Shown: positions 1-27,083 of the stretch, in pieces
Layout of the letters: every line of letters starts with the position of its first letter
How positions within the stretch are numbered: position 1 is the first letter of the stretch
Source: a phage
Sequence record: PZ583740.1
Length of the DNA: 27,851 bases
Strand: one strand, 5' to 3'
Made by a program: the position numbers and the translations under genes
Notes under the pieces: generated by a model
Databases searched by the model: none
What the model was told of the DNA's origin: nothing
Seen by the model: the letters and a program-made list of their open reading frames with translations, nothing else

Positions 1-419
1 TAACCGACCTCACCGCCTCGGTTGAGCGCAGCAGCATCATTACCTACATAAAGTGGATATTGTCCTGTGGGGTCAGAGAAGCCTTCGTTGGGATTTGCTT
101 TTTGTCTTGAGGCTGAACCATACGTACCAATAACAAGCCCGTTGAGTTTCCACTTGTCTAAAAAGTGACCATATACCTGAGTCCCTGGCACCATACCGGT
201 CATTGCAGTTTGAATACCAGAAACTGATGCAGATGATGTTGGCATCAGTACAGACATCCATGGCAGGTCTTCAGTTCTGATACCTTTTACAGGCCCTTGT
301 GATTTCTCATATGGATGCATACCCCATACACGGACACGGACTCGGCCTTGTTGAAGTGGGTCCATTCGGTCTTCGACAACACCGACGAACCAACTTACAT
401 TATCTGACATATTAATCAT
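1..419 (-). CDS. 5: Baseplate hub / tail lysozyme gp5, N-terminal part only (gene continues past window start)
   Basis: Reverse-strand translation from ATG at 417-419 gives MINMSDNVSWFVGVVEDRMDP...GFSDPTGQYP, matching the gp5 N-terminal domain as I recall it; start overlaps gene 53 stop (ATGA). Not in ORF track because no stop lies inside the window. Confidence 0.8.
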   Translation of the reverse strand, partial: MINMSDNVSWFVGVVEDRMDPLQQGRVRVRVWGMHPYEKSQGPVKGIRTEDLPWMSVLMPTSSASVSGIQTAMTGMVPGTQVYGHFLDKWKLNGLVIGTYGSASRQKANPNEGFSDPTGQYPLYVGNDAAALNRGGEVG

Positions 420-1018
420 AATGACTTCTCCATCTCACGGATTAATGCCGAAATAAATGATTCGATATCATTAGGGTCGATTATCTTTATTTCTCGTTTA
501 TATTCATTTTTACGAATAGCATCTTCATAGATATCTACTGCAGCTAATGGACCTTCATATTGTGGGTACAATTTATTCTTATCACCTTTATCATACCAGG
601 TGTACGGATTATCAGGATAAGAAACAAGATTCCAGAATTTTTCACCATCTTCATTTACATGATAAAGAACCTGATTACCACCTATATTCGAATAGCGTTG
701 AATTGATGCCTGATACGATGATTCTTGTGAACATATCCAACCATAATACGGGTCATAGATATCATTAAGCATAAGGAGAACCCAATAGAGTTGAGTATTA
801 CCATAGAGCTGATATGCAAGTTCTTCAGGTCTTGGAGCTCCAGCGATGTAATATGTTTTCGGTGTATAATTAACCGCAACCTTATCAAAATAGGCACGAT
901 AGTTTCTGAAGATGTCAGTCATCGGGATGCTTAAGACGTCTTCTTTCGTTAATGATGCCGAGTTTTTTCTGATTGTTTTAGCATCATAATCAATTGGGTT
1001 AAAAAATGAAAAAAGCAT
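416..1018 (-). CDS. 53: Baseplate wedge protein gp53
   Basis: Track ORF 416..1048; product MLFSFFNPIDYDAKT...YPQYEGPLAAVD resembles T4 gp53. ATG at 1016-1018 is preceded by GGAGG; the track's longer ORF begins at a TTG. Confidence 0.8.
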   Translation of the reverse strand: MLFSFFNPIDYDAKTIRKNSASLTKEDVLSIPMTDIFRNYRAYFDKVAVNYTPKTYYIAGAPRPEELAYQLYGNTQLYWVLLMLNDIYDPYYGWICSQESSYQASIQRYSNIGGNQVLYHVNEDGEKFWNLVSYPDNPYTWYDKGDKNKLYPQYEGPLAAVDIYEDAIRKNEYKREIKIIDPNDIESFISALIREMEKSL

Positions 1019-1030
1019 AAAGCCTCCATT

Positions 1031-1038
1031 TATAAATA
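1031..1038 (+). promoter_or_regulatory. T4-type late promoter (TATAAATA) for gene 4
   Basis: Exact TATAAATA 28 nt upstream of the gene 4 ATG, followed by GGAGG RBS. Confidence 0.55.
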
Positions 1039-1066
1039 AGTATATCAATATTTATTAGGAGGCTAT

Positions 1067-1519
1067 ATGGCATACTCCGGGAAGTGGCAGCCAAAAAACG
1101 TTGCCAAGTACAAAGGAGACTGGAAGAAAATCACATACAGGTCAAATTGGGAAAAATTTGTATTTAATTGGTTAGATAATCATCCAGATGTGATACAATG
1201 GGGCTCTGAGACCGTAATTATTCCATATTTCAGTAATGCGGATGGTAAAAAACGCAGATATTACATGGATATGTGGGTGAAATTCTCAAATGGACAACAG
1301 TTTTTCTTTGAGGTCAAACCCAAAAAGGAAACAAGGCCGCCAGCAAAACCAGTCAATACGACCGCTGCAAGTAAGAAGAGGTTTATGAACGAAATGTACA
1401 CTTGGGCCGTTAACAAGGATAAGTGGAAAGCAGCGCAGGCCGTAGCCGATAAAATGGGCATCCAGTTTAGATTGATTACTGAAGATGCGCTTAGAAAAAT
1501 GGGATATAAGGGTTTATAA
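1067..1519 (+). CDS. 4: Head completion protein gp4
   Basis: 150 aa, MAYSGKWQPKNVAKYKGDWKKITYRSNWEKF..., length and sequence match T4 gp4; divergent from gene 53 as in T4. Confidence 0.85.
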   Translation: MAYSGKWQPKNVAKYKGDWKKITYRSNWEKFVFNWLDNHPDVIQWGSETVIIPYFSNADGKKRRYYMDMWVKFSNGQQFFFEVKPKKETRPPAKPVNTTAASKKRFMNEMYTWAVNKDKWKAAQAVADKMGIQFRLITEDALRKMGYKGL

Positions 1520-2247
1520 TGTACGATTGTTCAGATTTTAACATCACAAATGGCGAGATAGTGGGACAAGGCGATTTTAATAAATCAAAAACTTTGATAT
1601 TTGTAAAGTGCTTTATATGTGAAGAAACATGCAAATACAAAGCAACTGTTTTAAAGCATAAGTTAAAAACAAAAAGTTGGTGTTCTAATTGTAATTTAAA
1701 ACGTTCTTATGGTGAAAGCAAATTAATATCTGAATTAGATGCAATCACAAGAATAAATTCCGTGAATCCATTGTATAGTTTTGATAAATGGGATACCACA
1801 TATTCAACTTTTACAAAATCAAAAGCCTATATAAAGTGTTCTACATGTTCAACCAGTTGGATTACAAATCTAAACAACTTTACAACAAAAAACAAAGGAT
1901 GTCCAAACTGTTGTCACAAAGGATTTAACGCAAAGAAACCTGCTATTGTTTATGTTAATAAAATAGAATATCCGGGCGGAACTGCTTTAAAGTATGGTAT
2001 AACTTCCAATCATGATTTTAGATTGTGGCAGCAAAATCATTTTTCCAAATGCATTAGTTCCAAATTATATTATCGAGAATTTGAACTGGGTGCACAAGCC
2101 AAAATGTTAGAATCCGCAATATCTGTATTATATATAAAAGACAGAGGTTATTTGAATAAAGATATTATGGTCGATGGCTATACAGAAACCTTACCATACT
2201 ATTTAAAAAATGATTTGATTAATTTTATAGAAGGATGGAAAGGATGA
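1519..2247 (+). CDS. Cys-rich putative endonuclease: N-terminal zinc-ribbon pairs plus GIY-YIG-like C-terminal half
   Basis: 242 aa. Two CxxC...CxxC units ([13 protein letters not shown]; CSTCS..CPNCC). C-terminal [33 protein letters not shown] resembles the I-TevI GIY...YVGSAKDFEKRWKRHF core. Start overlaps gp4 stop (TAATG), stop overlaps gp2 start (ATGA). Confidence 0.45.
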
Positions 2248-3071
2248 GTATTTTTACATTTATCAATGAATCTGCAGATAAACCAGGTCCGAAACCCAGT
2301 AAATCAGAACAACAATGGGTTGAAATAGGGGTTGAATTTTATACAGCAAAAGAAAAGGGAATGACCTCGAAGAAGTTTGCTGAAGAGAAAGGAATCAACT
2401 ATTCGACCTTTACCAAAAGCATGTCAAGATATCATTCGAGAATTCAGACTGCTTATAAAGTATCCAAGCTCAAAAAGAAACCTGCCGGTAAACTTACGAA
2501 GGCTGAACGTCAGCTGATAATGGTGAATAGCTTTAGAAAGAGCATAAGAGATAAGATTGCTAACGAAGGCGCTGCAAGCAACACCAAATCTGCCAGATGG
2601 TTCGCTGAGACAATTAAGAAATCAGTTCGGGGCCACGTAACGGCTAAACCTCAACCGGGTAAGATTTATGCTTATATCTATGATGCAAAGCATAAGGATA
2701 CTCTTCCGTACTGGGACAAATATCCGTTAATCATTTATCTTGGGCTAGGTAAGCACAATTTGATGTATGGTTTGAACTTGCACTATATTCCACCGAAGGC
2801 ACGTCAAGAGTTCCTTGAGGAACTTCTTAAGCAATATGCCAATACTCCTACGATTACGAACAAGACTCATCTGAAGATTGATTGGTCAAAAGTGAAGGGA
2901 TTTAAAGGGGCTGACCAGATGATTAAAGCATATATACCTGGCAATATAAAAGGTACTATCACTGAAATCAAGCCCAGCGACTGGGCAAATGTGGTATTAC
3001 TCCCCCTTCAGCAGTTTTTTTCAAAAGGCAAAAGATTTTCTTCACAGAAAGTATGGAGAAATTCACTTTGA
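2244..3071 (+). CDS. 2: DNA end-protector protein gp2
   Basis: Position between genes 4 and 3 as in T4; about 275 aa from ATG at 2244 (AAGGA upstream). Sequence recall for gp2 is weak, so the call rests largely on synteny and size. Confidence 0.65.
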
Positions 3072-3727
3072 ATTATCAGTTTATATATTCATCGTTAATT
3101 GAAAGGGCCCGTAACAGGGTCCTGATTTCATATAAAGAATCTCATCACATCATTCCGAAATGTATGGGTGGTTCAAATGCTCCGGATAACTTAGTCGATT
3201 TGACTCCCGAGGAACATTATGTAGCCCATCAACTATTGGTTAAAATATATCCTACAAATCCAGGTTTAAGTTTTGCTGCCACATCTATGAGTCAGTCAAG
3301 CAAGTATTTGAAACGCAATAATAAATTATTTGGCTGGTTAAGACGCAGACACGCTGACAATATTTCTAAAAGCCAAACCGGTAAAGTTTACTTTAATAAT
3401 GGTGTCAAATCGATAAAACTATTTCCATGGGAAGATGTTCCGGATGGGTTTGTCAAAGGAAGACATTACAGCCCAACCAAGGGTACAAAACATTCTCGCA
3501 ATAATGGACATTTTAAAAATAAAGAGATTCAGGACGAATTGAGAAAGCGCCGGTGGGAAAAAGATAGGCAAGAAATGTGTAAAAACTTCGGAGTTGATAC
3601 CATCGAGCAAGCTCGAGAGTTGGTCCTAGCATATAAAAAGGAATTGCATCCTCGATACTGGGTAAAGCCAATGTTGGAACGTTATCCGTTTATGACTAAG
3701 CTAAGACTTAACACATTAATAAAATAA
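3053..3727 (+). CDS. HNH homing endonuclease (free-standing)
   Basis: 224 aa with HNH motif [29 protein letters not shown]; inserted between genes 2 and 3, overlapping the gp2 3' end by 19 nt. Confidence 0.8.
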
Positions 3728-3812
3728 TCTATTATCGGTCAGTGTTATTGGTAAGGACAAAAGGTCTAGAACCATTATAACACTGATTGTTTTAAAGCAA
3801 ACAAGGTGCACT

Positions 3813-4412
3813 ATGTCAGGTTTATATAATCAAACTAACACGACTAACTTTATATTAGAGGTGAGCGATTCAAACCTCACACAGACCTTTAAACTCAACG
3901 TTCAAGACGTTACCCTCCCAGGAGTTCACATTCCAGTGACGGATGTCCCTGGGGGAACACAAGGTATAAATCGCTCCAGTCTTCCTGGTAGTACAATAGA
4001 ATTCGACCCGCTGATTGTTAACTTTCTGTGTGACAAAGACCTAAGAGCGTGGCTTGACATCTATAAATGGATGCTCTCGCTTAACAACTACATCACACAC
4101 GAATCAAAAGCATGGAATCCGAAGGGTCGTCCCGAAGCGGTCACGCTTCACATCTTAGATAACAACAAGGACAAAATTGTCATGTCAATCCATTACTATG
4201 GAGCATGGCCGTCCGACCTGTCAGAGATTCAGTATTCATATAAAGAAGATTCTGACCCGGCTATCATTGCAACAGCAACTTTTAACTTTAAGTCTTTTGC
4301 TGTAGAAATTGATGGTATAATAATAGAAGGTAGACCACAGATTGATAGTAATGCAGCAATGCAACAGGAAATCAGGTCTAAGTCAATGCATCCATCTATG
4401 AGAAACGTATGA
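3813..4412 (+). CDS. 3: Tail completion / sheath stabilizer protein gp3 (assigned mainly by position)
   Basis: 199 aa ORF between genes 2 and 1, stop overlaps gene 1 start (ATGA); RBS AAGGTG upstream. Confidence 0.55.
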   Translation: MSGLYNQTNTTNFILEVSDSNLTQTFKLNVQDVTLPGVHIPVTDVPGGTQGINRSSLPGSTIEFDPLIVNFLCDKDLRAWLDIYKWMLSLNNYITHESKAWNPKGRPEAVTLHILDNNKDKIVMSIHYYGAWPSDLSEIQYSYKEDSDPAIIATATFNFKSFAVEIDGIIIEGRPQIDSNAAMQQEIRSKSMHPSMRNV

Positions 4413-5085
4413 AATTAATTGCGATTGTGGGTAAAAAACGCAGTGGTAAAGATACGACTGCTGATTATGTTATTAGTCAAAACGGAACAAAGTGGCAGCT
4501 TGCTGGTCCGATTAAAGAAGCGCTTTATAAAGCGTGGATTCGTCAAGACCTGCCACACAATTTGACCCTGGAAAATTTTGATGGACAAGGTTACGACCGT
4601 GAAAAAACCTTAATAATGAACAACACCGAAGCTTATATTCTTCTGGTTGATGCTCTTGAATGGTTGAAACAACAATACAATCTTGACCTTCCGAATCCAG
4701 ATATGGTTCGTAAAATCATTGAATTTCACACACTAAATAATGTTGAGCCCTGGACAGTTAGACGTTTCATGCAGACCCTTGGAACTGATATTGTTTGTAC
4801 AGAGTTCGACAGCATGTTTTGGATTAAAACTTTTGCATGCGACTATCTTGACAACCTCTATTCTGGATATAAATATTACGTTGTCCCAGATGTTCGTCAA
4901 AAGAATGAACTTGATTCGCTTCGGGCGATGGGTGCTACAATAATCTTTGTAGAACGCGATGAAGCAAATCATTCTACTGATACACACATTACGGAAGCTG
5001 GACTTCCACCACTAGCTAGTGACATTGTTATTAAAAACGATGGCACACTCGAAGAACTTTTTGATAAAATTAATAAGGTAATATA

Positions 5086-5086
<1 letters not shown>
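4409..5086 (+). CDS. 1: Deoxynucleoside monophosphate kinase gp1
   Basis: 225 aa with P-loop GKKRSGKDTTAD; MKLIAIVGKKRSGKDTTADYVIS...LAGPIKEAL matches T4 gp1. Confidence 0.85.
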
Positions 5087-5776
<690 letters not shown>

Positions 5777-5777
<1 letters not shown>

Positions 5778-5806
5778 TGTACAAATGAGTGTAGGTGCAG
5801 TATTAT
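5777..5806 (+). promoter_or_regulatory. Sigma70/T4-early-like promoter (GTGTAC, 18 nt spacer, TATTAT) overlapping a 7-bp-stem palindrome
   Basis: GTGTAC at 5777-5782, TATTAT at 5801-5806; inverted repeat GTGTAGG (5789-5795) / CCTACAC (5810-5816); GGAG RBS then ATG at 5838. Confidence 0.35.
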
Positions 5807-5837
5807 GTTCCTACACCAATGAACAAACGGAGTTAAT

Positions 5838-6170
5838 ATGAACATCAAAACTTACAACGAGTTTTTAGCCGAATCCGCCATCAATGAGACCAAATCAATT
5901 GATGATAGTGAAGGCTCTCTGAAATTTGGTTTAACCAAAAACGCAGATGGTGTTTTCTTTCAGATTGGTAATGAACGTTTTCAAACGTCCAAATATTCCA
6001 AAGCTGCAGTTGAAGCTGTCCTGAAATCTGGTGGCAAGTGGAAAGGCAAAGAAGGTACTAAAGAAATTGGTATCGCTGTTGACGGTGGTATGGCTTATTT
6101 TAAAATTGGCGATGAACAATTTATTATGTCTGCTCGCGGACGTAAAGAACTGGCAAAACTTTATAAATAA
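5838..6170 (+). CDS. Internal protein (IP)-like, capsid-targeted small protein A
   Basis: 110 aa; N-terminus MNIKTYNEFLAE-S resembles the T4 capsid-targeting sequence MKTYQEFIAE with an L-x-E prohead-protease site; GGAG RBS. Confidence 0.7.
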   Translation: MNIKTYNEFLAESAINETKSIDDSEGSLKFGLTKNADGVFFQIGNERFQTSKYSKAAVEAVLKSGGKWKGKEGTKEIGIAVDGGMAYFKIGDEQFIMSARGRKELAKLYK

Positions 6171-6178
6171 GGTTTCTT

Positions 6179-6451
6179 ATGAAAACTTTCAATGAATTTT
6201 TCAACGAGTCACAATTGAATGAAGAAGTAAAAATTAGTAAAGCAGTCAAATCTATGATTGACAATATCAATCACCTGTATAGCATTGACTTGACTGACCA
6301 TATAACAATTGGTAACAAACGCAACTTTTTCGCGTTTGACATTTCAGAACTTGACCAGAACCAAATTAATAACATTGAGCGTTTTGCCAATGACAAGGGT
6401 CTCCGCCATGAGACAGCTGGTTATAAAAAATATGCAATTTATCTTAAATAA
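6179..6451 (+). CDS. Internal protein (IP)-like, capsid-targeted small protein B
   Basis: 90 aa; N-terminus MKTFNEFFNE-S; tightly linked to ORF A via conserved junction AAATAAGGTTTCTTATGAAAAC. Confidence 0.65.
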   Translation: MKTFNEFFNESQLNEEVKISKAVKSMIDNINHLYSIDLTDHITIGNKRNFFAFDISELDQNQINNIERFANDKGLRHETAGYKKYAIYLK

Positions 6452-6459
6452 GGCTTCAA

Positions 6460-6702
6460 ATGAAAACTTATCAAACATTTATAACAGAATCTTCCCATAG
6501 TATGGAAGTTAAACTTGGTCAAGCCCTTGCTGAAGCAGAGCGCCTGTTTGCACGTATCAAAGAACTTGCCGATTCTGTAGATGCATCATCTTTTAAAGGC
6601 GACCAGGGTAAAGTTAAAGCTCTCCTTGCTCTTTGTTCAGACGCGGGTGAAATTGCTAAGAACGGCACCAAGATGAAAAAACGCCTAGAAGATTTAAAAT
6701 AA
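6460..6702 (+). CDS. Internal protein (IP)-like, capsid-targeted small protein C
   Basis: 80 aa; N-terminus MKTYQTFITE-S; junction AAATAAGGCTTCAAATGAAAAC. Confidence 0.65.
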   Translation: MKTYQTFITESSHSMEVKLGQALAEAERLFARIKELADSVDASSFKGDQGKVKALLALCSDAGEIAKNGTKMKKRLEDLK

Positions 6703-6732
6703 GTGTACATGATGGGATAACTGTAGTATGAT
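6703..6732 (+). promoter_or_regulatory. Sigma70/T4-early-like promoter (GTGTAC, 18 nt spacer, TATGAT) overlapping palindrome TGGGATAA/TTATCCCA
   Basis: GTGTAC 6703-6708, TATGAT 6727-6732; 8-bp inverted repeat 6713-6720 / 6732-6739. Confidence 0.35.
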
Positions 6733-6757
6733 TATCCCATCAACTACTGGAGACCAC

Positions 6758-7012
6758 ATGAAAACTTATCAAGAATTTATTACTGAATCTGCAAATGCAA
6801 AAGTTGAGTTTGCTTATGTTGGTTCGCCGCGTGGCAGTTTTTCCAATGAGGAATTCCGTCGTTCACTGGACAATTTCATGCAGTTAAGTGCTGAAGTATC
6901 GCATGATGGTCGTTATGACATCGTTACTATTAGCGGTTCTGAAGACCTTATCAAAAAGTGGTACAAGCAGAAAGATGTTGAGATGCGTTACTATCGTATC
7001 CCTAAAAAATAA
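6758..7012 (+). CDS. Internal protein (IP)-like, capsid-targeted small protein D
   Basis: Track ORF 6728..7012 starts at an upstream codon; ATG at 6758 has a GGAG RBS and gives MKTYQEFITE-S (84 aa). Confidence 0.65.
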   Translation: MKTYQEFITESANAKVEFAYVGSPRGSFSNEEFRRSLDNFMQLSAEVSHDGRYDIVTISGSEDLIKKWYKQKDVEMRYYRIPKK

Positions 7013-7041
7013 GTGTACTTTTAAATGGGATAACGTATAAT
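7013..7041 (+). promoter_or_regulatory. Sigma70/T4-early-like promoter (GTGTAC, 17 nt spacer, TATAAT) overlapping palindrome TGGGATAA/TTATCCCA
   Basis: GTGTAC 7013-7018, TATAAT 7036-7041; inverted repeat 7026-7033 / 7041-7048; about 80 percent identical to the unit at 6700-6760. Confidence 0.4.
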
Positions 7042-7070
7042 TATCCCATCAACTACTGAGGGCCAAAAAA

Positions 7071-7292
7071 ATGAAAACGTATCAAGAATTTATTAACGAA
7101 GCTAAAATGCATGACGAATTGCCGATTCAATCTAAAACTTTTGATGGTACACTGAAGGATTTTAAAAAGTTGCCAAATGATAAATTGGCAAAACTTACAG
7201 GTTCTGTATCTGAAACAGGTGGTAAGGTTACTTTCTCTGCCCGTGGTATTGTCAACCTTAAAAAACTTTTGAAAGCCGTTGGTGCTGAATAA
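7071..7292 (+). CDS. Internal protein (IP)-like, capsid-targeted small protein E
   Basis: 73 aa; N-terminus MKTYQEFINE-A; GAGGG RBS. Confidence 0.65.
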   Translation: MKTYQEFINEAKMHDELPIQSKTFDGTLKDFKKLPNDKLAKLTGSVSETGGKVTFSARGIVNLKKLLKAVGAE

Positions 7293-7350
7293 AACAGTTA
7301 CTGGTCTAGTATATCATAACCTAGACCTATCAAAAAGTGAGGAGAATAAA

Positions 7351-7536
7351 ATGAAACGTTGTGAATTAATTAGAAATGTTACTGCCTTTGTTGCTGTTAC
7401 CACTTTTGGTTTTAGCATGTTTGCTGGCTTTATGTTGAATATGCTTTCAACTTCTGAGAATATAATCTCTTTAGTAGTTGCATTTTTAATTGGTTCAATC
7501 TCTTTCGTTATGGATAAAATCTCTAAAGGTGAGTAA
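7351..7536 (+). CDS. Small predicted membrane protein (two hydrophobic helices), function unknown
   Basis: ATG at 7351 preceded by strong GAGGAG RBS; 61 aa with hydrophobic stretches [23 protein letters not shown] and [17 protein letters not shown]. Track ORF 7279..7536 starts at an upstream TTG. Confidence 0.5.
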
Positions 7537-7550
7537 AATGTATAAAGTGT

Positions 7551-8519
7551 ATGCGGATTATCAGAAAGATTCGCCTGCAAGGCTTCACCAGCGGTGAATG
7601 GGTAGCTCGCGAGAAGATTCATGGTACCAACTTTTCATTAATCATTGAACAAGACAATGTGACATGTGCGAAACGCACTGGACCTATCCTGCCTGCAGAA
7701 GATTTCTATGGTTATGAAATTGTATTAAAGAATTATGCTGATTCTATTAAATCTGTGCAGAAACTTTTGCAGGATATTAATTACCAGGCATACCAGATTT
7801 ATGGTGAGTTTGCCGGGGCAGGTATCCAGAAGAATGTGGATTACGGTGATAAAGATTTTTATGTATTTGATATCCGCGTTACTAAAGAAGATGGTTTTGA
7901 ATCCGTCCTGACTGACACCTTGATGGAAGCATTCTGTATTATCCATAAGTTTAAGGTTGCACCGCGCCTGGCTACAGGTAGTTTTGAAGAATTAATTAAG
8001 CTCCCTAATGACCTGGATTCTGTTGTCCCTGATTACAATTTTACAGTGGATAACGCGGGTTTGACTACAGCAAATACCACTGATTTTGTTGCAAAGGTGG
8101 AAGGTAAAGTATTCACTGCCGAAGGATTTGTATTAAAACCTGATGTTCCTGCATGGTTACCTAACGGCGAGCGTGTAGCGATTAAATGTAAGAACTCTAA
8201 ATTCAGTGAAAAGAAAAAGTCTGATAAGCCTATTAAGGCTGCAGTGGTTCTGAGCCAAAATGATATGGATTTACTGTGGAATTTCACTGATTATGTGACT
8301 GTTAACCGTATCAACAATGTTATCAGTAAAATTGGGGAAGTAACACCGAAGGATTTTGGAAAGGTAATGGGGTTAACAGTCCAAGATATTCTGGAAGAAG
8401 CGGGGCGCGAAGGTCTTGAATTGTCCCTGACGGAAAATCCTGTTGAAGTTAAAAAGCAACTTATTGTAAATGTAAGAGAAACATTAAGACATGTTTGGAT
8501 TGCATTAGTTAGTGAATAA
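7551..8519 (+). CDS. rnlB: RNA ligase 2 (Rnl2 / gp24.1)
   Basis: 322 aa with nucleotidyltransferase motif [20 protein letters not shown] and strong overall similarity to T4 Rnl2; true 5' end uncertain (ATG with good RBS at 7538 is in another frame). Confidence 0.85.
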
Positions 8520-8547
8520 AAATAAAGGGCCTTGCGGCCCTTTTTTA
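8520..8547. terminator. Bidirectional rho-independent terminator between rnlB and gene 24
   Basis: Hairpin GGGCC-TTGC-GGCCC (8527-8540) flanked by an A-run upstream and T6 downstream; lies between convergent stops. Confidence 0.7.
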
Positions 8548-9825
8548 ATTTATTTCAGTCAGAACTTTAGGAAGTTTCACACCAAGCAGTACAGACATAT
8601 CTGAACGTCCTGCCATCAAATCCATATTTGTTGCATCAATAATACGAGCTTGTTTATCATCAGCAGTCACTGTATAAGGGTTAGCTGCTAACGCATAACG
8701 AACCATTAATGCAATAGACGGCTGCAAACTTTCTGGGTCAACGACAACTTTGAACGAACCAACATGTTCAGGGTCTTCCAGGTCAAGACCTTCGGTATAA
8801 GGTGCATAAAACAGTGAACCCACCATCTCTTTCCCACCGAAATCTTCTTTAACACCAACAGTCACATAATCAAATGGAGTGTTCGTATCGCAATAAAGCG
8901 GTAGACCATTATCCAAGAAACCATACGCATTATCGGAGAGATATTTCTCATCTTGTGGACGATGCTTCAACCAACCAGAACCAGCCAAAACTGCAGCTAC
9001 ACGCGTAGAAGCAACAACGTATGTTGCGGTGTAAGAAGTTGCCCGCTGAATATGGGAGACCATCTCACACATGATTTCGTACAACTTGCGTGAAGCTTCC
9101 GGAGAGTTGGTATAAGACAGGTCAATCAGGCCATCATCACAGAGTCCAGCAACTTTATAACGCTTGGAAACTGTTACCAGGGATTGCAGGATATCTTTGT
9201 TAATTTCATCAGCCATTTCGGTAGCTAACAGGTCTTCCAGGAAGTTTGGAGCGTCAAAACCATTTGCTTCCAGGTCCTGGGCCAGTTCCACTGTAACAGT
9301 GCTTTTCAGCTTACGAGATTTAACCGGAGCATTCCATTTGTTAACCAAAAATTTAGCTTCGGCAATTTCGACTTCCTGTGGTCCTTCAAAACGTTCGGTG
9401 ATTGCAGCTTCGGACATAATACGGATGGTCAATTTAACCATCGCTTCTTGAAGCTGGTCATACTCATCGCCCGTTGCTCCAGCAAATGGAGTTGCTACCA
9501 GCGCTTTATAAACTACATTTTCAAACTGGAACAAATCGTCTTTAGCATAAACTGCGCCAGCAACAAAAACCGGAATGGTCGCACGGTCTTTTGCTGATAC
9601 TGCACCAGAATAGGTTGCACCAGTCTGGAAAGATAATTCATCTTTCTGAGTCAGGTATTTAAGACCGTATAATGCCGCCAGTGGCTGGGATGTGCGCTGT
9701 TGTGCTACTAAATCGGTGTAAATCAGTTTAGTTGTAGCTCTGGTTAAAGCTACTAGATTCGGTCGACCAATCGAAGAACTTGTGGTCGTGGTCGACTCTT
9801 TTAAGAGTTCGTTAATTTTAGCCAT
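8545..9825 (-). CDS. 24: Head vertex protein gp24
   Basis: 426 aa, MAKINELLKESTTTTSSSIGRPNLVALTRATTKLIYTDLVAQQRTSQPLAALYG...; gp23-paralog fold; matches T4 gp24. Confidence 0.85.
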   Translation of the reverse strand: MAKINELLKESTTTTSSSIGRPNLVALTRATTKLIYTDLVAQQRTSQPLAALYGLKYLTQKDELSFQTGATYSGAVSAKDRATIPVFVAGAVYAKDDLFQFENVVYKALVATPFAGATGDEYDQLQEAMVKLTIRIMSEAAITERFEGPQEVEIAEAKFLVNKWNAPVKSRKLKSTVTVELAQDLEANGFDAPNFLEDLLATEMADEINKDILQSLVTVSKRYKVAGLCDDGLIDLSYTNSPEASRKLYEIMCEMVSHIQRATSYTATYVVASTRVAAVLAGSGWLKHRPQDEKYLSDNAYGFLDNGLPLYCDTNTPFDYVTVGVKEDFGGKEMVGSLFYAPYTEGLDLEDPEHVGSFKVVVDPESLQPSIALMVRYALAANPYTVTADDKQARIIDATNMDLMAGRSDMSVLLGVKLPKVLTEIN

Positions 9826-9850
9826 TGCTATTTCCTTTTGTGATATACTT

Positions 9851-9858
9851 TATTTATA
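9851..9858 (-). promoter_or_regulatory. T4-type late promoter (TATAAATA on minus strand) for gene 24
   Basis: Reverse complement of 9851-9858 is TATAAATA, 25 nt upstream of the gp24 ATG. Confidence 0.55.
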
Positions 9859-9864
9859 AAAGTT

Positions 9865-9894
9865 GTTTACAACCAGATTAAGATAAGACATAAT
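9865..9894 (+). promoter_or_regulatory. T4-early-like promoter (GTTTAC, 18 nt spacer, CATAAT) for the plus-strand 93-aa ORF
   Basis: GTTTAC at 9865-9870 and CATAAT at 9889-9894; AT-rich upstream. Confidence 0.4.
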
Positions 9895-9935
9895 GATTCC
9901 ATACTGAGTTAACAAACAAAACCTGGAGTTTAAAA

Positions 9936-10217
9936 ATGAACAAAGCAACTTTCCTTCTGAACACCTTTAAAAATCTGGAAATTGAAGTTATTGCCTTGGT
10001 CAACAAATACCCAAATGGTGTTAATGGTAATGCTCTGAACAAACTAGTTAAAAAATATGAAAACTTAGCATATGACACTGATTTCTGGTGGAATGGTAAT
10101 TATTCTACTCACACTAAAGATAAAAATGGTAACTGGTTGAAACTTCAAGAAAACAATGTTAACTTCAGAGACCTTATCAAGCGCCGGGTAGAAGTTCATT
10201 TAAATGGTATGGTATGA
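9936..10217 (+). CDS. Hypothetical protein, opposite-strand gene between head genes 24 and 23
   Basis: 93 aa ORF with GGAG RBS 8 nt upstream of ATG, own promoter-like element and a downstream hairpin terminator; no recognisable motif. Confidence 0.5.
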   Translation: MNKATFLLNTFKNLEIEVIALVNKYPNGVNGNALNKLVKKYENLAYDTDFWWNGNYSTHTKDKNGNWLKLQENNVNFRDLIKRRVEVHLNGMV

Positions 10218-10224
10218 AAACAAG

Positions 10225-10252
10225 AAAGGGACCTCAAGGGTCCCTTTTTATT
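10225..10252. terminator. Bidirectional rho-independent terminator after gene 23 and after the 93-aa ORF
   Basis: Hairpin GGGACC-TCAAG-GGTCCC (10228-10244) followed by T-run on plus strand and T-rich tract on minus strand. Confidence 0.7.
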
Positions 10253-10267
10253 TAACTTAATCTAGGA

Positions 10268-11827
10268 TTAAATTCCTTTAACATATACGCGGCGGAAGTA
10301 ACCGTTCAAGCCAAGGCTGTTAACGATGTCCGGCATGCCGTTCTGAATGCGCTTGGTCGGAGCCTGAGCAGCAGGGTCAGCAAACGGGTTGATACCGATA
10401 CCGTAACGGGTTTTGAAGCCCATAACCGGCTGGAAGTTTTTCGGGTCAGAACCACGCAGCGGGGTCAGTGCAACATATGGTGCGTAGTAGATACCAGCAT
10501 CCATTTCGTTAGCGCCTTTGTAACCGATGGTGAAGTAATCTGCACGAGCATACTGGTCGATATAGACACGGTATTTGCCACCCAGAACACCAGCGAACAC
10601 AGCTTTAGTGGTGTCAACGTTGAAACCTTTACCCAGACCCTGAGCAGCATAACTAACAGAAGTATCAACAGCAGCCAGCACGTTAACTACGTTACGGGAA
10701 GCGATGATGAAGTTACCTGCACCACGACCGGTCTGACGAGCGATTTCAGCGGCTTCTTTATCAATCTGGAACAGTAAAGCTTTGAAGCTTTCACCAGCCC
10801 AACGAGCACCACGGATATCAATCGGGTCCTGGAAGTCAAACACACCAGCTTTAGCGCCAACGGTGTTGGTCATACCAGATTTACCAACCTGAGCGGAGTA
10901 GTTAATCCAATCGATAACTTCACGGTTGATTTCCAGCATAATTTCGGTAGCCAGAATACCACTCAATTCGGCATCAGCATCCATACCATGAACAGCGCGC
11001 AGGTCCTGTGCCAGTTCGATGGAGTAGCTTGCTTTCAGCTGACGGGATTTAGCTTCGATAACTTGTTTATCGATACGGAAGCCCATTTCGTTCCACGGGT
11101 TATCAGTAGAACCGTTAAAGCCTTCCTGCAATTCGGCGATAGAAGTAGCCATACCTTCAGCGATTTCTGCCAACTTACCAGCTTCGAGCAGTTTGGTAAC
11201 TTCAGCGTCAAGTTTAGCAGCATCAGTAGCACCAGCATCAACGGTTACAGCTTCAACAGCCTGGTAGTGTGCAGAACCGGTTGCTTCGAAGAAGTGAGAA
11301 TAAATTTTACCAACTTCCAGAACTTTGCTTGCAGCCAGTGCTTCAAAAGTCTGAGCAGCGCCCTGACCAGAGAACATAGCGTTCGGAGCATACATCGGAT
11401 GGAAAGCTTCTTTAGCACCAGCAGCGACAGGGTCTTTACCGTATACTGCACGCAGTGCAAATACCTGGCCAGTCGGGTTGTTCAGAGGCTGTACGCCACA
11501 AATATCAAACGCAATCAGATGCGGGATAGCACGACGAACCATACCCATAACTGCCGGCCCAATCTGAGTTACTGCACCAGAGGTCTGGCCAGCAGCGATA
11601 TTGGTAGCATCATAACCATGGTCACCACCGATTTCAGCTTCGGTCAGGAAAGAACCAAATGCTTCGGAGATTTTTTCGTCACGGTATTCAGGAGCGGTCA
11701 GAATATCTTGTTCCTGGTTTTCAAAGATTTTAGCGATGATAGCTTGTTTAGAAGCACCAACGATTTCAGGAAGAGCTTCGTTTTCCAGCAGAGCGGACCA
11801 TTTTTGAACTAATGCATTCTTTTTCAT
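10268..11827 (-). CDS. 23: Major capsid protein gp23
   Basis: 519 aa; near-identical stretches to T4 gp23 (AIIAKIFENQE, GAVTQIGPAVMGMVRRAIP, DPKNFQPVMGFKTRYGIGINPF, YFRRVYVKGI). Confidence 0.95.
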   Translation of the reverse strand: MKKNALVQKWSALLENEALPEIVGASKQAIIAKIFENQEQDILTAPEYRDEKISEAFGSFLTEAEIGGDHGYDATNIAAGQTSGAVTQIGPAVMGMVRRAIPHLIAFDICGVQPLNNPTGQVFALRAVYGKDPVAAGAKEAFHPMYAPNAMFSGQGAAQTFEALAASKVLEVGKIYSHFFEATGSAHYQAVEAVTVDAGATDAAKLDAEVTKLLEAGKLAEIAEGMATSIAELQEGFNGSTDNPWNEMGFRIDKQVIEAKSRQLKASYSIELAQDLRAVHGMDADAELSGILATEIMLEINREVIDWINYSAQVGKSGMTNTVGAKAGVFDFQDPIDIRGARWAGESFKALLFQIDKEAAEIARQTGRGAGNFIIASRNVVNVLAAVDTSVSYAAQGLGKGFNVDTTKAVFAGVLGGKYRVYIDQYARADYFTIGYKGANEMDAGIYYAPYVALTPLRGSDPKNFQPVMGFKTRYGIGINPFADPAAQAPTKRIQNGMPDIVNSLGLNGYFRRVYVKGI

Positions 11828-11848
11828 GTGTTGTATAACCTTATTAAA

Positions 11849-12667
11849 TTAAGAAATTCGTGATGCTGCGAGAGCAGACAAGTCCGCGAAGGACAGGGTA
11901 GGCTTGGCGCCTTTTTCTTCAACTGCTTCTGAAATGTAATTCAGTGCCGCAGCATCGTCTACATTTTTATTTATAGCGGCTTCGGTGATTGGTTTGTCGG
12001 TGGGTTCTACCTGACCTTTAACCATTTCAACGATAGCGCCAATTTTGGTACCGAATGCATCAGAGTATTCCATGCCTTCTACCAGAGAACCAACTTTTTC
12101 TTTCTGAGATTCAGTCAGGTCTTTAGTTGCTTCAGTCAACGCAACTTCACGTTGGACATAATTGATATAAGCATCACGCTTAGAAACTTCTTCGAACAGG
12201 TTAGCGGTTTCTTCTTTCTGTTCAGCCAGTTCTTCCTGCATTTCTGCAACAACATCGACAGATTCTTCCGGAACAACAACGTTGTGCTCAACGAACAGTT
12301 CTTTCATGCCGGTGAACATGGATTCGAACAGGTCAGCTTTAATGCCACGGTCGACAGCCAGTTTATTTTCAGCAAGCCATTCTTTAGCAACGTGGTCCAG
12401 GAATTTAGCTGCAGATTCTTTCAGTTTTTTCTCTGCTTTTTCGTCGGATTCTTCTTTATTCTTTTCGACTTCTTCTTCAGCTTTTTCAGCGATGGCGTGA
12501 ATGTGAGATTCTGCCAGTTTGATGGCGTGTTGCTTGACGGTAGCTTCGAATACAGTGCCGAAGGTAGCTTTCGCTTCCGGGGACAAATTAACTGATTCGA
12601 AAATACTATCGAGAGCAACGGAAGCATCGATATTCTGAGCTTCAGAAATGAGTTGTTCTTTAAGCAT
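11849..12667 (-). CDS. 22: Prohead core scaffold protein gp22
   Basis: 272 aa, highly acidic coiled-coil-like protein between genes 21 and 23, as in T4. Confidence 0.8.
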   Translation of the reverse strand: MLKEQLISEAQNIDASVALDSIFESVNLSPEAKATFGTVFEATVKQHAIKLAESHIHAIAEKAEEEVEKNKEESDEKAEKKLKESAAKFLDHVAKEWLAENKLAVDRGIKADLFESMFTGMKELFVEHNVVVPEESVDVVAEMQEELAEQKEETANLFEEVSKRDAYINYVQREVALTEATKDLTESQKEKVGSLVEGMEYSDAFGTKIGAIVEMVKGQVEPTDKPITEAAINKNVDDAAALNYISEAVEEKGAKPTLSFADLSALAASRIS

Positions 12668-12696
12668 TTTGTAGTCCTGTTGTTAAGATATACATT

Positions 12697-12704
12697 TATT
12701 TATA
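12697..12704 (-). promoter_or_regulatory. T4-type late promoter (TATAAATA on minus strand) for gene 22
   Basis: Reverse complement of 12697-12704 is TATAAATA, 29 nt upstream of the gp22 ATG; overlaps gp21 stop codon. Confidence 0.5.
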
Positions 12705-13338
12705 ACGTCTTTAAAGCCTCTGCGAGAGCCATAAAGGCGTCATCGGCACTGGTATCGGCAACAGCCGTTTGTGATTCTGTAATCTGCTTTGGTTTGACCC
12801 AAGCGTCCGGAGCACTTGGCCCCCATACTGCGTCTACTCCAACCGTCAATTTAAAACCTTCATTAACGATGTTATAACCTTTTGCTGATTTAGTCAGGGA
12901 ACCAAGTCCACGACTAGATACGCCAGGAATCCAACCTGCTCTTATATTCGCAGCAAGTTTATCACCTGGACCATGGTCGCCTTCTATAATACGTGCGCGG
13001 CCATATACATCATTCCCTTTCCACCACATTTCCTCGATAATAATTGCTGCCTGCATAGGGTCAACGTTTGCACGAGGTGGATGGTTTAATTCTCCAAGAG
13101 ACTGCTTGGTTTCAACCTGTTCGACGATATAGTCCGCAACAGCTTTTTCCAAAATATGTTTAGGATAAAGTCGTTTATTACGGTTAACAACTTCAGCTTG
13201 TAGGAAAATACCTTCAATATAAAGTCCTGGCTTTAAACCGCTGCTGGAACCATCATGAGATTCCAACATCGGTACACCATCTTTAATTTCGCCCGGTTGA
13301 CCCCAGTGTTCGATTAGTAACTCTGGTTTCTGTTCCAT
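12700..13338 (-). CDS. 21: Prohead protease gp21
   Basis: 212 aa, [21 protein letters not shown]...; same length as T4 gp21 and matching sequence. Confidence 0.85.
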   Translation of the reverse strand: MEQKPELLIEHWGQPGEIKDGVPMLESHDGSSSGLKPGLYIEGIFLQAEVVNRNKRLYPKHILEKAVADYIVEQVETKQSLGELNHPPRANVDPMQAAIIIEEMWWKGNDVYGRARIIEGDHGPGDKLAANIRAGWIPGVSSRGLGSLTKSAKGYNIVNEGFKLTVGVDAVWGPSAPDAWVKPKQITESQTAVADTSADDAFMALAEALKTL

Positions 13339-13766
13339 TAATCAAGTCCGAATGCTTTACGCTTAGCTCGAGCTTTTTTGCGCTTGCGCTCTGCTCTGAT
13401 TTGCGTAGATGGGTTTGCTCTTTTCGTTTTAGTAGCCAGACGGGCAATTTGACGACGTTTAGCTTTAGAAAGACCGGTTGTTTGGAAAGCATTACGCTTA
13501 CGAGTAGCTAGGTCTTTTGTGCGGGTTAACTCACCGCGAGACGATACATGTTTAACGATAAATTCGTTAAGCTGAACACCTTCATTCAGAGCGCCGATAA
13601 CCGTTGCTTTTTCGTATTCACCGGCTGCAAACATGTTTTCTACAATAATATTTATATCGTCTTTTTCTAAGGCTTCGGATAATGAATCAAATTGTCCCTG
13701 AGCTTCTTCGGAAACACTTTCAATGTTTTCAAGAGTTAATTCGTAATCATCAGGGATAATAAACAT
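13338..13766 (-). CDS. 68: Prohead core protein gp68
   Basis: 142 aa with basic C-terminal tail; position between 67 and 21 as in T4. Confidence 0.7.
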
Positions 13767-13993
13767 TATTCATCGTCCTCATCGTCAGATTCTTTTTTGT
13801 CTTTCTTTTCTGCTTTGCCGTCGTCCTTGCCTTCATCTTCTTTAGGCTCTTCGCCTTCAATCATGATGGAACGTGCAATTTCAATCTTACGTTCTTCAAT
13901 CAAACTACCGCATACTGGGCCAATGTTTTCAGCAAAATATTTGCGAACGGCTACGAGGTCGTTTGATTTAATGGCTTCAAATAAATCATCCAT
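13766..13993 (-). CDS. 67: Prohead core protein gp67
   Basis: 75 aa with acidic C-terminus; position immediately downstream of gene 20 as in T4. Confidence 0.7.
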
Positions 13994-15567
13994 TAGAAAT
14001 CCTCTTCTTCTTCTTCAGGGTTTTGGAAACGAGCCTCTTTGGACTCCAATTCAATTTGCTTAGCTTCTTGATTAATTTCTTCATCAGACATCTGGAGGAA
14101 ATCCTTCATAGCCGTTTGATGTGAAATATATTTACCGATAAACGGTTCAGCCATCGTTAGCATATTGATTCTGCGTTCCATGATTTCTGCATCTTTCATT
14201 TCGGTGAAATAGCTATCACGGTTGAACGTAACTTTAATATTATTTAGTTCCTTGTCCCATTCCTCTTCTGAAATAATTTTTTTCAGGATAAGGTTTGTTT
14301 TAAGCGGGTCGAGGAAAACTTCTTCAAATTTATTCTGTAGCTGTCGAATCCATTTAGAGAAATTCAATTCATCGCGAGTAATTGTCGCACCTGCATCAAA
14401 CATAACGCCGCTGTTCTGGTCGTTAGGGATACGAGATAATGGAATTCGGAGCGCCTGATATAGGTTGTTCTTAAACCAGCGAACATCGTCCATATCCGAC
14501 ATGCCTTGTGCACCCGGGAGTGTATCAACTTCAGTGACTGCTTTACCATCACGACGTTGCAACCAATAGTCTTCTGTCATTGACATGTTGTGCTGTTGGT
14601 TTTTGATTTTACCCGTAGTTGCATCATATACGACACGGTTTTTCATCGTGTTCATAATATGTTGCATGTGTGCTGCTGCTTTACGAGACGGCATATTCCC
14701 GGTATCGATATAAAAGACTCGGCGGTCTGGGGCACGAGTTATACGATAAATGACTAAAGCATCTTCTAATAGTTTTAATTGGTTTGCAGGTTTAATTGCT
14801 CGTTGCAAGTATCCGATGATATTCTTGCCACAACAATCGAGTAATCCAGAATGCGCATATACAATCGCCGCACGAGGAATTTTTATTTTAGTACCTGCTT
14901 CATATATACGACCATCGGCACAATAACTTTCATGGCCAGTATCGTATACAAAATATTCTCTGTAACCGTCGACAATTTTTGTACCGTTTTCCATGCGTGT
15001 AACGATTTCACGGATGAACTGGATTTGTCTTGGGTCAAGGCGACGAAGTTCTTGAACTCCATCTTTAAGTTTTGATGGGTTGATAATTTTGTGGAAGAAA
15101 ATTCGAGAATCCACATACCAACGTTTAAAGTGGTCAGAACCTTTGCGCTCGAAATTAAGGAGGTTATTGACTTCCGAGAATTCTTCGAGGATTCGGTCTT
15201 TAATTTTCTGACTAAATTCGGTAGCATCAAGGTTAAGAGCTACAACATCTTTACCGTCTTCAAAAACGATAGCATCAGACACAATTTCTTGCACTGCGTT
15301 ATCAACTTCATAATTATTTAGTAAGTTGCGGTAGGTGTCAATTAATTCCCTGGTATTTTTTACTTCAGGTTCATTGCTCCCGAACATCTGTTGCATCAAT
15401 GCATTATACGGGACGTTTTGTTCTTGTGACTCAATTTCACGAGCCCCATCATCAAACTTCGGCCCGGTCATTGACTCTAAATTATTTTTTTCTTGTTGCT
15501 TATATTCTTGTTCATCTTCTTTAGCCCAAGGCTTAAGAAAATTTAGTATTGTGTTAAAACCTGCCAT
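13993..15567 (-). CDS. 20: Portal vertex protein gp20
   Basis: 524 aa; long stretches matching T4 gp20 ([58 protein letters not shown]). Confidence 0.9.
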
Positions 15568-15595
15568 TAGAGTCTCCGAAGTTTGTCTATTACTT

Positions 15596-15603
15596 TATTT
15601 ATA
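15596..15603 (-). promoter_or_regulatory. T4-type late promoter (TATAAATA on minus strand) for gene 20
   Basis: Reverse complement of 15596-15603 is TATAAATA, 28 nt upstream of the gp20 ATG; overlaps the stop of the upstream endonuclease gene. Confidence 0.5.
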
Positions 15604-16186
15604 TTGGAGTTCGGGTACAATTTTTATGATATCGAACAATCGCAGAGCGAGTGGACTCCGTACCACATACGGGACAAATTGCACGAGGTAAATTTAATGA
15701 TTTTCCTTTATTTGGATGTTCTTTACCAAACATAGGATTATTTTCACCGCTCATTGCTTTAGAATGGTCTGGTCGTTTTCTTCCTGATAATGCTTTGGAT
15801 TGTCTTGGACGTTTAACACCAGTATTGCTTTTATTTCTTTTATCGATAGATTCCTGTGTCCAAACCTTACCTTTCATCGACATACCAAAAAATCCATTTG
15901 GTTGAGCTAATGACATATTTATATAGTTTGGTGATTTAACCACATTGTATAATTTTTGTACTCGTAATTCTTCTTCAATAGCTTCTTCGTGCGTATTAAA
16001 TGTTTTTAAGATACGAGTTTTAAACAACTGAGGATTATCACGTAATTCATTTTTCCAAATGGTTTTATATTTTTTAGAACCAACGGAACCATGATAATTT
16101 TCAGTTATTCGTTGAATAGTTGTCGAGCCGATGTAACGACGGGGAAGGAGATTCCCCGTATATACTGTAAGATAAGTGCAATACAT
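15599..16186 (-). CDS. GIY-YIG homing endonuclease (Seg-like)
   Basis: 195 aa; N-terminal YLTVYTGNLLPRRYIGST (GIY...YIG), NUMOD3-like repeats (SGRKRPDHSKAMSGENNPMFGK), C-terminal CPVCG...HKNC zinc finger; GGAG RBS. Confidence 0.8.
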   Translation of the reverse strand: MYCTYLTVYTGNLLPRRYIGSTTIQRITENYHGSVGSKKYKTIWKNELRDNPQLFKTRILKTFNTHEEAIEEELRVQKLYNVVKSPNYINMSLAQPNGFFGMSMKGKVWTQESIDKRNKSNTGVKRPRQSKALSGRKRPDHSKAMSGENNPMFGKEHPNKGKSLNLPRAICPVCGTESTRSAIVRYHKNCTRTPI

Positions 16187-16232
16187 TCAAATTTCTCCAC
16201 TTCATTGTTTGAATGTATTTATTATGTCACAA

Positions 16233-16598
16233 TTATTCCCACCAGTCAATTGCGAACGTCGCTTCGAACGTCTCAATCTCATTATTGGAGTCCCAATCCA
16301 TCTGGACTTCCCCAACGTTGGTTGGCCACATGCCGGTAATAACAACTTCTTTCGTAACGGTCTTGCCATCACGATGGAACTGGCGGACAGTAGCGGTTTT
16401 CTTATAATCAGCAGGAGCTGCACCGGTGATTTCGTTAGTCATACCGTGACACAGATTTTGCCAATCAACAATTGCTTGACGAACTTTATGAGCATCGTCG
16501 TTATAAATCGTAATAGTCCAGTCATCAAATGTACGGTCACCCGCCACGTTGATTTTACGGTTCATGTAACCGACCGGAACTTTTTCTACAATGCCGAT
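16233..16598 (-). pseudogene. 19: Tail tube protein gp19, 5'-truncated fragment (about 42 N-terminal codons missing)
   Basis: In-frame region ...IGIVEKVPVGYMNRKINVAGDRTFDDWT...NEIETFEATFAIDWWE matches T4 gp19 residues ~43-163; an in-frame TAA at 16599-16601 and the gp11 stop at 16636 leave no room for the N-terminus. Confidence 0.6.
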
Positions 16599-16635
16599 TT
16601 ATCGCTAATGTGTTTTAGCGTGTTAGTCGTTGTCA

Positions 16636-17301
16636 TTACGATACTCGCTTATAATGGTAAAGTGAAATTGCGCCATTTGCTGTGCCACCTGATAATGTCT
16701 GGGTTGAAGTTCCAAGATATTCCCATGAACCATAACCACCGCGCGGTTGCTGTGTAATAGTCTGGCTAAGCGTACAACCATATTGAGTGAAAGGTACAAA
16801 ATTATGGTTTTGGTAGTCGTTATATGTAATATTTAATATAGACTGGTCCACACTATCAATTGCAGAGCTTGACACAATTAAACTATCAGCAACAGCCGTC
16901 AGCAAAGCATCGTTAACCTTGGAAGCAACTAATACAGCCGAATCCCCGACAATAACCTCAACTGGAATACCAAAAATGAAAAATAAAACAGTATCACCAA
17001 CCCCAGCACCAGAAATAGAACCGGTGAATTTAATTTTATCCGACTGGCTGATTGCTGCCGGAGAAAGGTTATTTGTATTAGTAATTACACTACCAACTGG
17101 AAGCTCGTATCGAAATGCGATATCATCTATTGCGCTCTGAACTGTTGGGTAAAAAATACCTTCGGTTGTCTGTGTTGCGGATGGGCCGCCGATTGCTCGT
17201 TGACCCATAACAGCCGTAATATTTTTTGATGTATTTTGAAATTCTAAGCAACTAGCAAGGCGGGAAATTACTCCAGCCTTTTTATTCGTTAATGTTTTCA
17301 T
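16636..17301 (-). CDS. 11: Baseplate wedge / short-tail-fibre attachment protein gp11
   Basis: 221 aa, M..NKKAGVISRLA...YHYKRVS matches T4 gp11 start and end; start overlaps gp10 stop. Confidence 0.8.
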   Translation of the reverse strand: MKTLTNKKAGVISRLASCLEFQNTSKNITAVMGQRAIGGPSATQTTEGIFYPTVQSAIDDIAFRYELPVGSVITNTNNLSPAAISQSDKIKFTGSISGAGVGDTVLFFIFGIPVEVIVGDSAVLVASKVNDALLTAVADSLIVSSSAIDSVDQSILNITYNDYQNHNFVPFTQYGCTLSQTITQQPRGGYGSWEYLGTSTQTLSGGTANGAISLYHYKRVS

Positions 17302-19981: not shown

Positions 19982-20008
19982 AGGTAAGCCTCGTTATTGA
20001 TATAGCTA

Positions 20009-20016
20009 TATTTATA
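20009..20016 (-). promoter_or_regulatory. T4-type late promoter (TATAAATA on minus strand) for gene 9
   Basis: Reverse complement of 20009-20016 is TATAAATA, 27 nt upstream of the gp9 ATG, with a GAGG RBS between. Confidence 0.55.
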
Positions 20017-20020
20017 GAAT

Positions 20021-20045
20021 AAAAAAGGGACCCGAAGGTCCCTTG
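20021..20045 (-). terminator. Rho-independent terminator immediately after gene 8
   Basis: On minus strand GGGACC-UUCG-GGUCCC followed by U6 (plus-strand A-run 20021-20026); sits just upstream of the gene 9 late promoter. Confidence 0.6.
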
Positions 20046-24141: not shown

Positions 24142-24169
24142 GGTTTCCTTAAAAAGCCTCCGAAGAGGC

Positions 24170-26793: not shown

Positions 26794-27083
26794 TTTATGA
26801 ACACCTTCCCTGAAGCTTGTGCGACAGTATCACCACATGAAATCGGGTCTGCCATTTGAACAGCTTTCTTACCGGTAACAAATACTTTTGATGTGCGCGG
26901 TTGTGTTACTCCACCGTGAGTTTCATATGGTTTTTTAATTTCGGTATGCTCGGTAATAGGGTCTCCGGCAACTAACACCGGAATTCCCCCGGTGAATACT
27001 TTACCTTGAGTTGCATTAATTACAGTCGGTGGCCATGCTTCGTGGCCTGCTGTAACACATTGATTGAAACTTAATCCAGCCAT
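26790..27083 (-). CDS. 5.4: Baseplate spike tip protein gp5.4 (PAAR-like)
   Basis: 97 aa, same length and position as T4 gp5.4. Confidence 0.65.

Follow-up and report, generated by a model that had tools for sequence, protein, structure and literature searches.

A Gaprivervirus sequence with gene 5 split across its ends is most likely a composite of three pieces of one phage genome

Results

Gene 5 at the two ends of the window

The stretch of DNA analyzed here (the window; 27,851 bp) begins and ends inside gene 5, which encodes the baseplate hub and tail lysozyme (Table 1). At the left end, the translation of the minus strand from position 419 to position 3 matches the Pfam profile Gp5_OB with an E-value of 3.3e-49, over the curated cut-off, and it agrees at 138 of 139 positions with residues 1-139 of Escherichia phage DK-13 gp5, a protein of 580 aa. 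The window's left end cuts this fragment at the base equivalent to position 86795 of Escherichia phage vB_EcoM_RZ (RZ), and gene 53 and gene 5 overlap by the usual 4 nt. At the right end, the frame that runs from 27851 down to 27615 is open from its first base for 78 codons, followed by a stop; the remaining two frames are stop-rich. This fragment matches the Pfam profile Gp5_C (E = 2.7e-14, again over the cut-off) and is identical to residues 503-580 of DK-13 gp5 at all 78 positions. Downstream of it lie 5.1, 5.4, a homing endonuclease of the GIY-YIG type and gp6. The original prediction for this DNA had placed the gp5 N-terminus at the left end (417-419 down to 1) and the C-terminal beta-helix at the right end (27615-27851), with 5.1, 5.4 and 6 following in T4 order; our searches bear out each of these assignments, with the endonuclease lying between 5.4 and 6.

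Together the two fragments hold 217 of the 580 codons of gene 5, in agreement with the earlier estimate of about 220 of some 575. The missing middle, which the prediction had proposed to locate, was found at RZ 86796-87882. It comprises 1,087 bp and encodes residues 140-502, including the lysozyme domain, and with it the sum closes: 419 + 1,087 + 237 = 1,743 nt, or 580 codons and a stop. The central lysozyme domain of gp5 (Pfam Phage_lysozyme, PF00959), which intact relatives carry, is absent from the window. It had also been stated correctly that the two fragments would not join in frame; if the window ends are abutted, a TAG comes directly after gp5 residue 139. Gene 5 is not one continuous ORF between 53 and 5.1 here, and its two fragments lie 27.2 kb apart.

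The gp5 of T4 consists of an OB-fold, a lysozyme domain and a triple-stranded beta-helix. The window keeps the OB-fold and the beta-helix, which are 99-100% identical to those of intact 580-aa Gaprivervirus gp5, and the T4 gene neighborhood 53, 5, 5.1, 5.4 and 6 is kept around the two fragments. Unlike in T4 gp5, however, one part stands at each end of the window and residues 140-502 are missing. We considered DNA repeats of the gp5 beta-helix, or an oriE iteron array, as a cause of the breaks in gene 5 and rejected both: TRF detected no DNA-level tandem repeat in gene 5, and no oriE iteron array in the window or in gene 5 of RZ.

Table 1. Blocks, junctions and selected genes of the window, with their positions
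Feature	Position in window	Strand	Details
Block A	1-7564		7,564 bp; RZ 86795->79891; 98.6-99.0% identity to RZ; one 658-bp insertion at 3066-3723; contains the gene 5 5' part, 53, 4, an endonuclease ORF, 2, a homing endonuclease, 3, 1, 57A, 57B, internal-protein-like small ORFs, trna.4 and trna.3 codons 1-9
Block B	7565-16595		9,031 bp; RZ 118722->110266; 98.1-98.3% identity to RZ; insertion at 15586-16232; contains truncated rnlB, 24, a small ORF, 23, 22, 21, 68, 67, 20, an HNH homing endonuclease and the last 120 codons of gene 19 (Phage_T4_gp19 model positions 38-133)
Block C	16596-27851		11,256 bp; RZ 98473->87883; 97.7-98.3% identity to RZ; one 674-bp insertion at 26118-26791; contains the first 41 nt of gene 12, 11, 10, 9, 8, 7, 6, a GIY-YIG homing endonuclease, 5.4, 5.1 and the gene 5 3' part
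Gene 5, 5' fragment	1-419	-	Baseplate hub/tail lysozyme; ATG at 419-417; codons 1-139 plus 2 nt
Gene 53	416-1018	-	Baseplate wedge, intact; Phage_gp53, E = 5.8e-74; directly upstream of gene 5, as in T4
phrog_681 endonuclease	1519-2247	+	Between genes 4 and 2
phrog_655 homing endonuclease	3053-3727	+	Between genes 2 and 3; absent from RZ, present in fPSFA and P479
Junction J1	7564/7565		trna.3 codon 9 abuts rnlB at base 3 of codon 18; blunt, with 0 bp microhomology
Chimeric ORF	7551-8519	+	322 aa; RNA_ligase and T4_Rnl2_C matches; resembles a complete RNA ligase 2 gene
HNH/NUMOD3-type homing endonuclease	15599-16186	-	phrog_10820, phrog_314; between gene 20 and gene 19
Junction J2	16595/16596		Blunt join of gene 19 codon 44 to gene 12 nt 41; 0 bp microhomology
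GIY-YIG (SegE-like) homing endonuclease	26116-26793	-	Between 5.4 and gene 6, with a few-base overlap with both; absent from RZ
5.4/PAAR	27083->26790	-	Profile match
5.1	27580->27083	-	phrog_1168
Gene 5, 3' fragment	27615-27851	-	Codons 503-580 plus stop; C-terminal beta-helix; cut at the window's right end (RZ 87883)

Three blocks of one Gaprivervirus genome

A megablast search against 50,697 phage records identified the window as sequence of Gaprivervirus, a T4-like genus of the Tevenvirinae. The closest relatives were RZ (NC_070780.1; Straboviridae, Tevenvirinae, Gaprivervirus) and its relatives DK-13, P479 and TH41, while SP18, the type member of the genus, matched block B at 97.6%. Pairwise blast against RZ gave about 98% identity in three colinear blocks in one common orientation, each reverse-complemented relative to the RZ record. 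With identities of 97.7-99.0% overall and with gene synteny to RZ (Gaprivervirus arezed), all three blocks belong to this genus.

All of the 27,851 bases except three homing-endonuclease insertions align to RZ, and within each block the gene content and order are identical to those of RZ. The blocks abut in the window, whereas in RZ gaps of 1,087 bp and 11,792 bp lie between them. On the strand given by the window, the real genome runs from B through 11,792 bp holding genes 19.1, 18, 17, 16, 15, 14, 13, wac and 12 to C, and from C across the 1,087 bp of central gene 5 to A. The window thus has the order A-B-C as against A', C', B' on the RZ plus strand, the intervening DNA is absent from it, and it covers only about 16% of a genome of about 170 kb. 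Compared with its relatives it jumps twice in its interior, from trna.3 to rnlB and from the middle of gene 19 to the start of gene 12; these two discontinuities, at 7564/7565 and 16595/16596, had no place in the original prediction. In short, the window consists of three pieces that are not neighbors in the single T4-like phage genome from which they come, set end to end.

Away from the cuts, all genes are intact and of the same length as their RZ counterparts, with the sole exception of gp67. This prohead core protein (13766-13993, minus strand) has 75 aa in the window and is 11 codons, or about 33 nt, shorter in frame; it has 83-86 aa in RZ, SP18, P479 and two metagenome contigs. The difference is probably an ordinary length polymorphism. 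Scans of the window for tRNAs, Rfam families and composition returned nothing relevant.

Homing endonucleases

Each of the three insertions relative to RZ corresponds to one free-standing homing endonuclease. We considered whether these insertions could be further artificial joins and rejected the idea, as each endonuclease is found at the same site in natural relatives. In all, four mobile-endonuclease ORFs lie in the 27.9 kb of the window. At the site of the phrog_681 endonuclease, some relatives carry a 215-aa ORF instead (annotated as a homing endonuclease in P479) and others carry nothing.

The HNH/NUMOD3-type endonuclease is rare and occurs in no Gaprivervirus record of the phage collection. 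At the DNA level its nearest match (74% identity) is the HNH gene that adjoins the tail-tube gene of Pectobacterium phage PM2 and Kosakonia phage 305, and a 41-mer taken from it had no exact match in the viral, metagenome and genome contig collections. Two Logan contigs, DRR831830_483 and SRR30726806_262400, carry the exact protein at the same site. For the GIY-YIG endonuclease, the exact protein is present at this site on 10 metagenome contigs, and segA is annotated within the matching region of VR26.

Sequence at the junctions

Every best record listed in the megablast search of the 50,697 phage records (15-25 per query) breaks at both J1 and J2, and none of the matches listed covers either junction. 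All of the cuts are intragenic, and J1 lies within a codon. The trna.3 frame stops 10 codons past J1 and the gene 12 frame stops 3 codons past J2. Alignments to the references abut at the junctions with zero overlap. When the window was compared with the RZ reference continuing on each side, no microhomology (0 bp) was present at J1 or J2 or where the two window ends would meet if joined, and within 300 bp to either side in the RZ reference the longest repeat common to any two break flanks was 9 nt. Ligation of restriction fragments, which would leave a common site, was considered and rejected: neither a common motif nor a restriction site was found at the six cut sites.

Terminal overlap had been suggested as a check on circularity. 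We found none: no suffix of the window equals a prefix, and the longest word common to its first and last 1 kb is 10-11 nt. The junction sequences were also missing from all collections searched. The 40-mers across J1 and J2 had no exact match in IMG/VR viral contigs, the 40-mer across J1 had none in JGI metagenome contigs or GTDB genome contigs, and 600-bp junction-spanning sequence had no match in complete E. coli genomes or PLSDB plasmids.

The join at J1 creates an ORF that resembles an entire RNA ligase 2 gene (Table 1). Its first 5 codons start from an out-of-frame ATG in trna.3, in block A, and the rest is rnlB from codon 18, so that the true N-terminal 17 codons of rnlB are missing. 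An index of 153 billion genes holds no record of its exact product. This 322-aa ORF is a fusion that the junction produced artefactually. Exact-protein look-up also returned no record for the gp7 of the window.

Arrangement in natural relatives

The arrangement of the same genes was examined in related phages. The complete Gaprivervirus genomes of RZ, P479 and SP18 follow the standard order of T4, and each has a single gene 5, located between 53 and the following gene. Gene 5 is a single ORF of 580 aa in RZ, P479, DK-13 and three metagenome contigs, and of 596 aa in SP18. The exact gp53 of the window occurs on 6 natural contigs (DK-13 and five metagenome or Logan contigs), each with gene 5 after it; gene 5 is complete, at 580 aa, in the 2 that are long enough, and in the other 4 it is cut by the end of the contig. 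It is likewise continuous in the contigs that carry the exact GIY-YIG endonuclease.

The same holds at the other breaks. The alignment of two Logan contigs with the window ends at position 16595, beyond which the contigs proceed through the remainder of gene 19 to 19.1 and gene 18; in both, an intact gene 19 stands beside the exact homing endonuclease that the window has between genes 19 and 20. A 72-kb metagenome scaffold with an identical portal protein shows the standard arrangement across gene 19 and rnlB. The exact gp53, gp20 and two homing endonucleases of the window were found only on normally arranged contigs, which are 85-99.9% identical to the window at the nucleotide level; none of the contigs that share exact proteins with the window is the same strain. 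At each break point that they cover, the relatives are continuous.

We also asked where the break points lie with respect to variation among the relatives, and found that they are not at conserved/variable boundaries. Contig ends produced by a mixture of strains would tend toward such transitions, and this origin of the breaks was rejected on that ground. The 23-kb partial record of Shigella phage fPSFA was examined as a possible second stitched record and rejected as such; it is a plain contiguous excerpt.

The neighborhood of gene 5 is a hot spot of variation in Gaprivervirus. P479 has an extra ORF of 636 nt between 53 and 5 (32862-33497), and in SP18 a 2-kb ORF annotated as similar to RB43ORF205w replaces 5.1/5.4 (9250-11313). 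Many short-read metagenome contigs of related phages terminate inside gene 5, and within single samples these ends fall at about codon 160, at codons 218-241 and at codons 462-466. Co-occurring strain variants are the likely cause of these contig ends, which no DNA repeat explains.

Discussion

The division into three blocks, their blunt junctions and the undisturbed arrangement in relatives are demonstrated. From these we infer that the window is an artefactual composite, a reading to which we give a probability of about 85%: three arbitrarily cut pieces of one Gaprivervirus genome, abutted without common sequence. The joining would have taken place in silico, as contigs or slices were concatenated, or in vitro, as a blunt-ligation chimera, rather than in the phage; software, a submitter or library chemistry could have been responsible. 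The original prediction had offered a mis-joined contig or deliberate concatenation of segments as one possibility, and three non-adjacent blocks abutted bluntly fit that description. The pieces, of 7,564, 9,031 and 11,256 bp, would have been cut at arbitrary positions from one T4-like genome and then abutted, whether as concatenated contigs or slices or through blunt-ligation chimerism in a library. Setting block A before B and C would bring the two cut faces of gene 5 to the outer ends and so mimic a rotated circle; the window looks like a circle because A has been placed ahead of B and C, whereas A really follows C after the middle of gene 5. The split gene 5 at the window ends is therefore most likely due to cutting and pasting, not to biology. 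The composite is no biological feature, and genes 5, 19, 12, rnlB and trna.3 are simply truncated in it. Because the sequence away from the cuts is undamaged, with 97.7-99% identity to viable phages, the truncations bear no sign of evolutionary age, and since the breaks do not sit at conserved/variable boundaries and gene 5 has no tandem repeat, the cut positions look arbitrary.

Chimeric or concatenated sequences, such as multi-contig drafts without Ns and blunt-ligation chimeras, show the same blunt mid-gene joins, with nothing shared at the joins and flanks that are otherwise flawless. Random chimerism, in comparison, does not require the shared orientation and cyclic order that the pieces of the window have. 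Under random shuffling, these would agree with the real genome with a chance of about 1/8. They are expected from successive deletions of a circular or concatemeric molecule, and ordered slicing of one record gives the same result. The lengths of the pieces are monotonic, ascending in the window and descending in the orientation of the RZ record. This is weak evidence for a concatenated contig list (p about 1/3). About 56% of random joins would be blunt and free of microhomology by chance, and its absence here is thus only mildly diagnostic.

One rival reading is that of a complete or near-complete circular contig whose opening point lies inside gene 5, a situation known from T4-type genomes with terminal redundancy. 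It would account for gp53 and the 5' part of gene 5 at one end and the 3' part of gene 5, 5.1, 5.4 and 6 at the other, all on the same strand, and the original prediction had described the window as arranged like a rotated circle or a circularly permuted contig. In arbitrarily opened assemblies of T4-type genomes, which are circularly permuted and terminally redundant, a gene split across the record ends is indeed commonplace; the DK-13 record opens between 5.4 and 6. Such records, however, contain the whole genome of about 170 kb, are colinear, and have ends that abut or overlap, and none of this is true of the window. Its ends are 1,087 bp apart in RZ, out of frame and without overlap, its interior makes two jumps with respect to T4-like genomes, and it amounts to about 16% of such a genome. 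The internal junctions refute simple circular permutation, unless those junctions are real, and we regard it as extremely unlikely. Another rival is a mis-join by a de Bruijn or overlap assembler, which would have passed through repeats shared by distant parts of the genome and built a chimeric, pseudo-circular contig. In its favor, gene 5 often contains the ends of metagenome contigs of related phages, and assemblies are thus commonly fragmented there. A mis-join of that kind nevertheless needs a shared k-mer of at least k-1 bases, and the sequences at J1 and J2 share 0 bp, with at most 9 nt within 300 bp, as judged from the RZ reference. We consider an assembler error of this type very unlikely.

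Two further readings take the joins as real. The window could be a true deletion derivative, a helper-dependent mini-T4 of 27.85 kb, circular or tandemly repeated, that was opened at the deletion junction in gene 5. It would have arisen by three homology-independent deletions (1.09 kb, 11.8 kb and about 130 kb), would be packaged by the headful as multimers, and would keep head genes 20-24, baseplate genes 53 and 6-11 and the neighborhood equivalent to oriE. Deletions from a circularly permuted genome would leave A, B and C in precisely this order and orientation, and every gene retained is intact. The T4 replication origin oriE adjoins repEA, in the neighborhood of gene 5 (PMC3016281), and by analogy a mini-genome might retain an origin, the oriE equivalent near gene 5. 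Against this, TRF detected no iteron array in the window or in gene 5 of RZ, the window holds no replication or packaging gene, and neither terminal overlap nor any other sign of circularity is present. Illegitimate deletions usually use short repeats, and microhomology is absent at all three junctions. The junction 40-mers are also missing from the viral, metagenome and genome collections searched, and we know of no described precedent for a T4-like mini-genome. On balance a mini-genome, the one biological alternative that deserves to be retained, is very unlikely. The window could also be a plain excerpt of a viable phage whose late-gene region is truly rearranged, but only the existence of the sequence speaks for this. 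The joins truncate three essential genes, 5, 12 and 19, and the standard order is found in every complete Gaprivervirus genome and natural contig examined. A genome limited by the headful has little room for second intact copies of genes. Such a phage is exceedingly improbable.

Should the joins prove real, against expectation, the window would be the first helper-dependent T4-like mini-genome to our knowledge, though nothing favors that over an artefact. The main value of the present analysis is as a caution for anything else reported from the window. Adjacency across 7564/7565 or 16595/16596 is not biological, and inferences that rely on either should be discarded. Genes 12 to 19.1 and the lysozyme domain of gp5 seem to be lacking, but this too is non-biological, and inferences drawn from it should likewise be dropped. 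The truncated gene 19, the 41-nt stub of gene 12 and the split gene 5 are not to be read as pseudogenes, as domain shuffling or as a compact phage-derived element.
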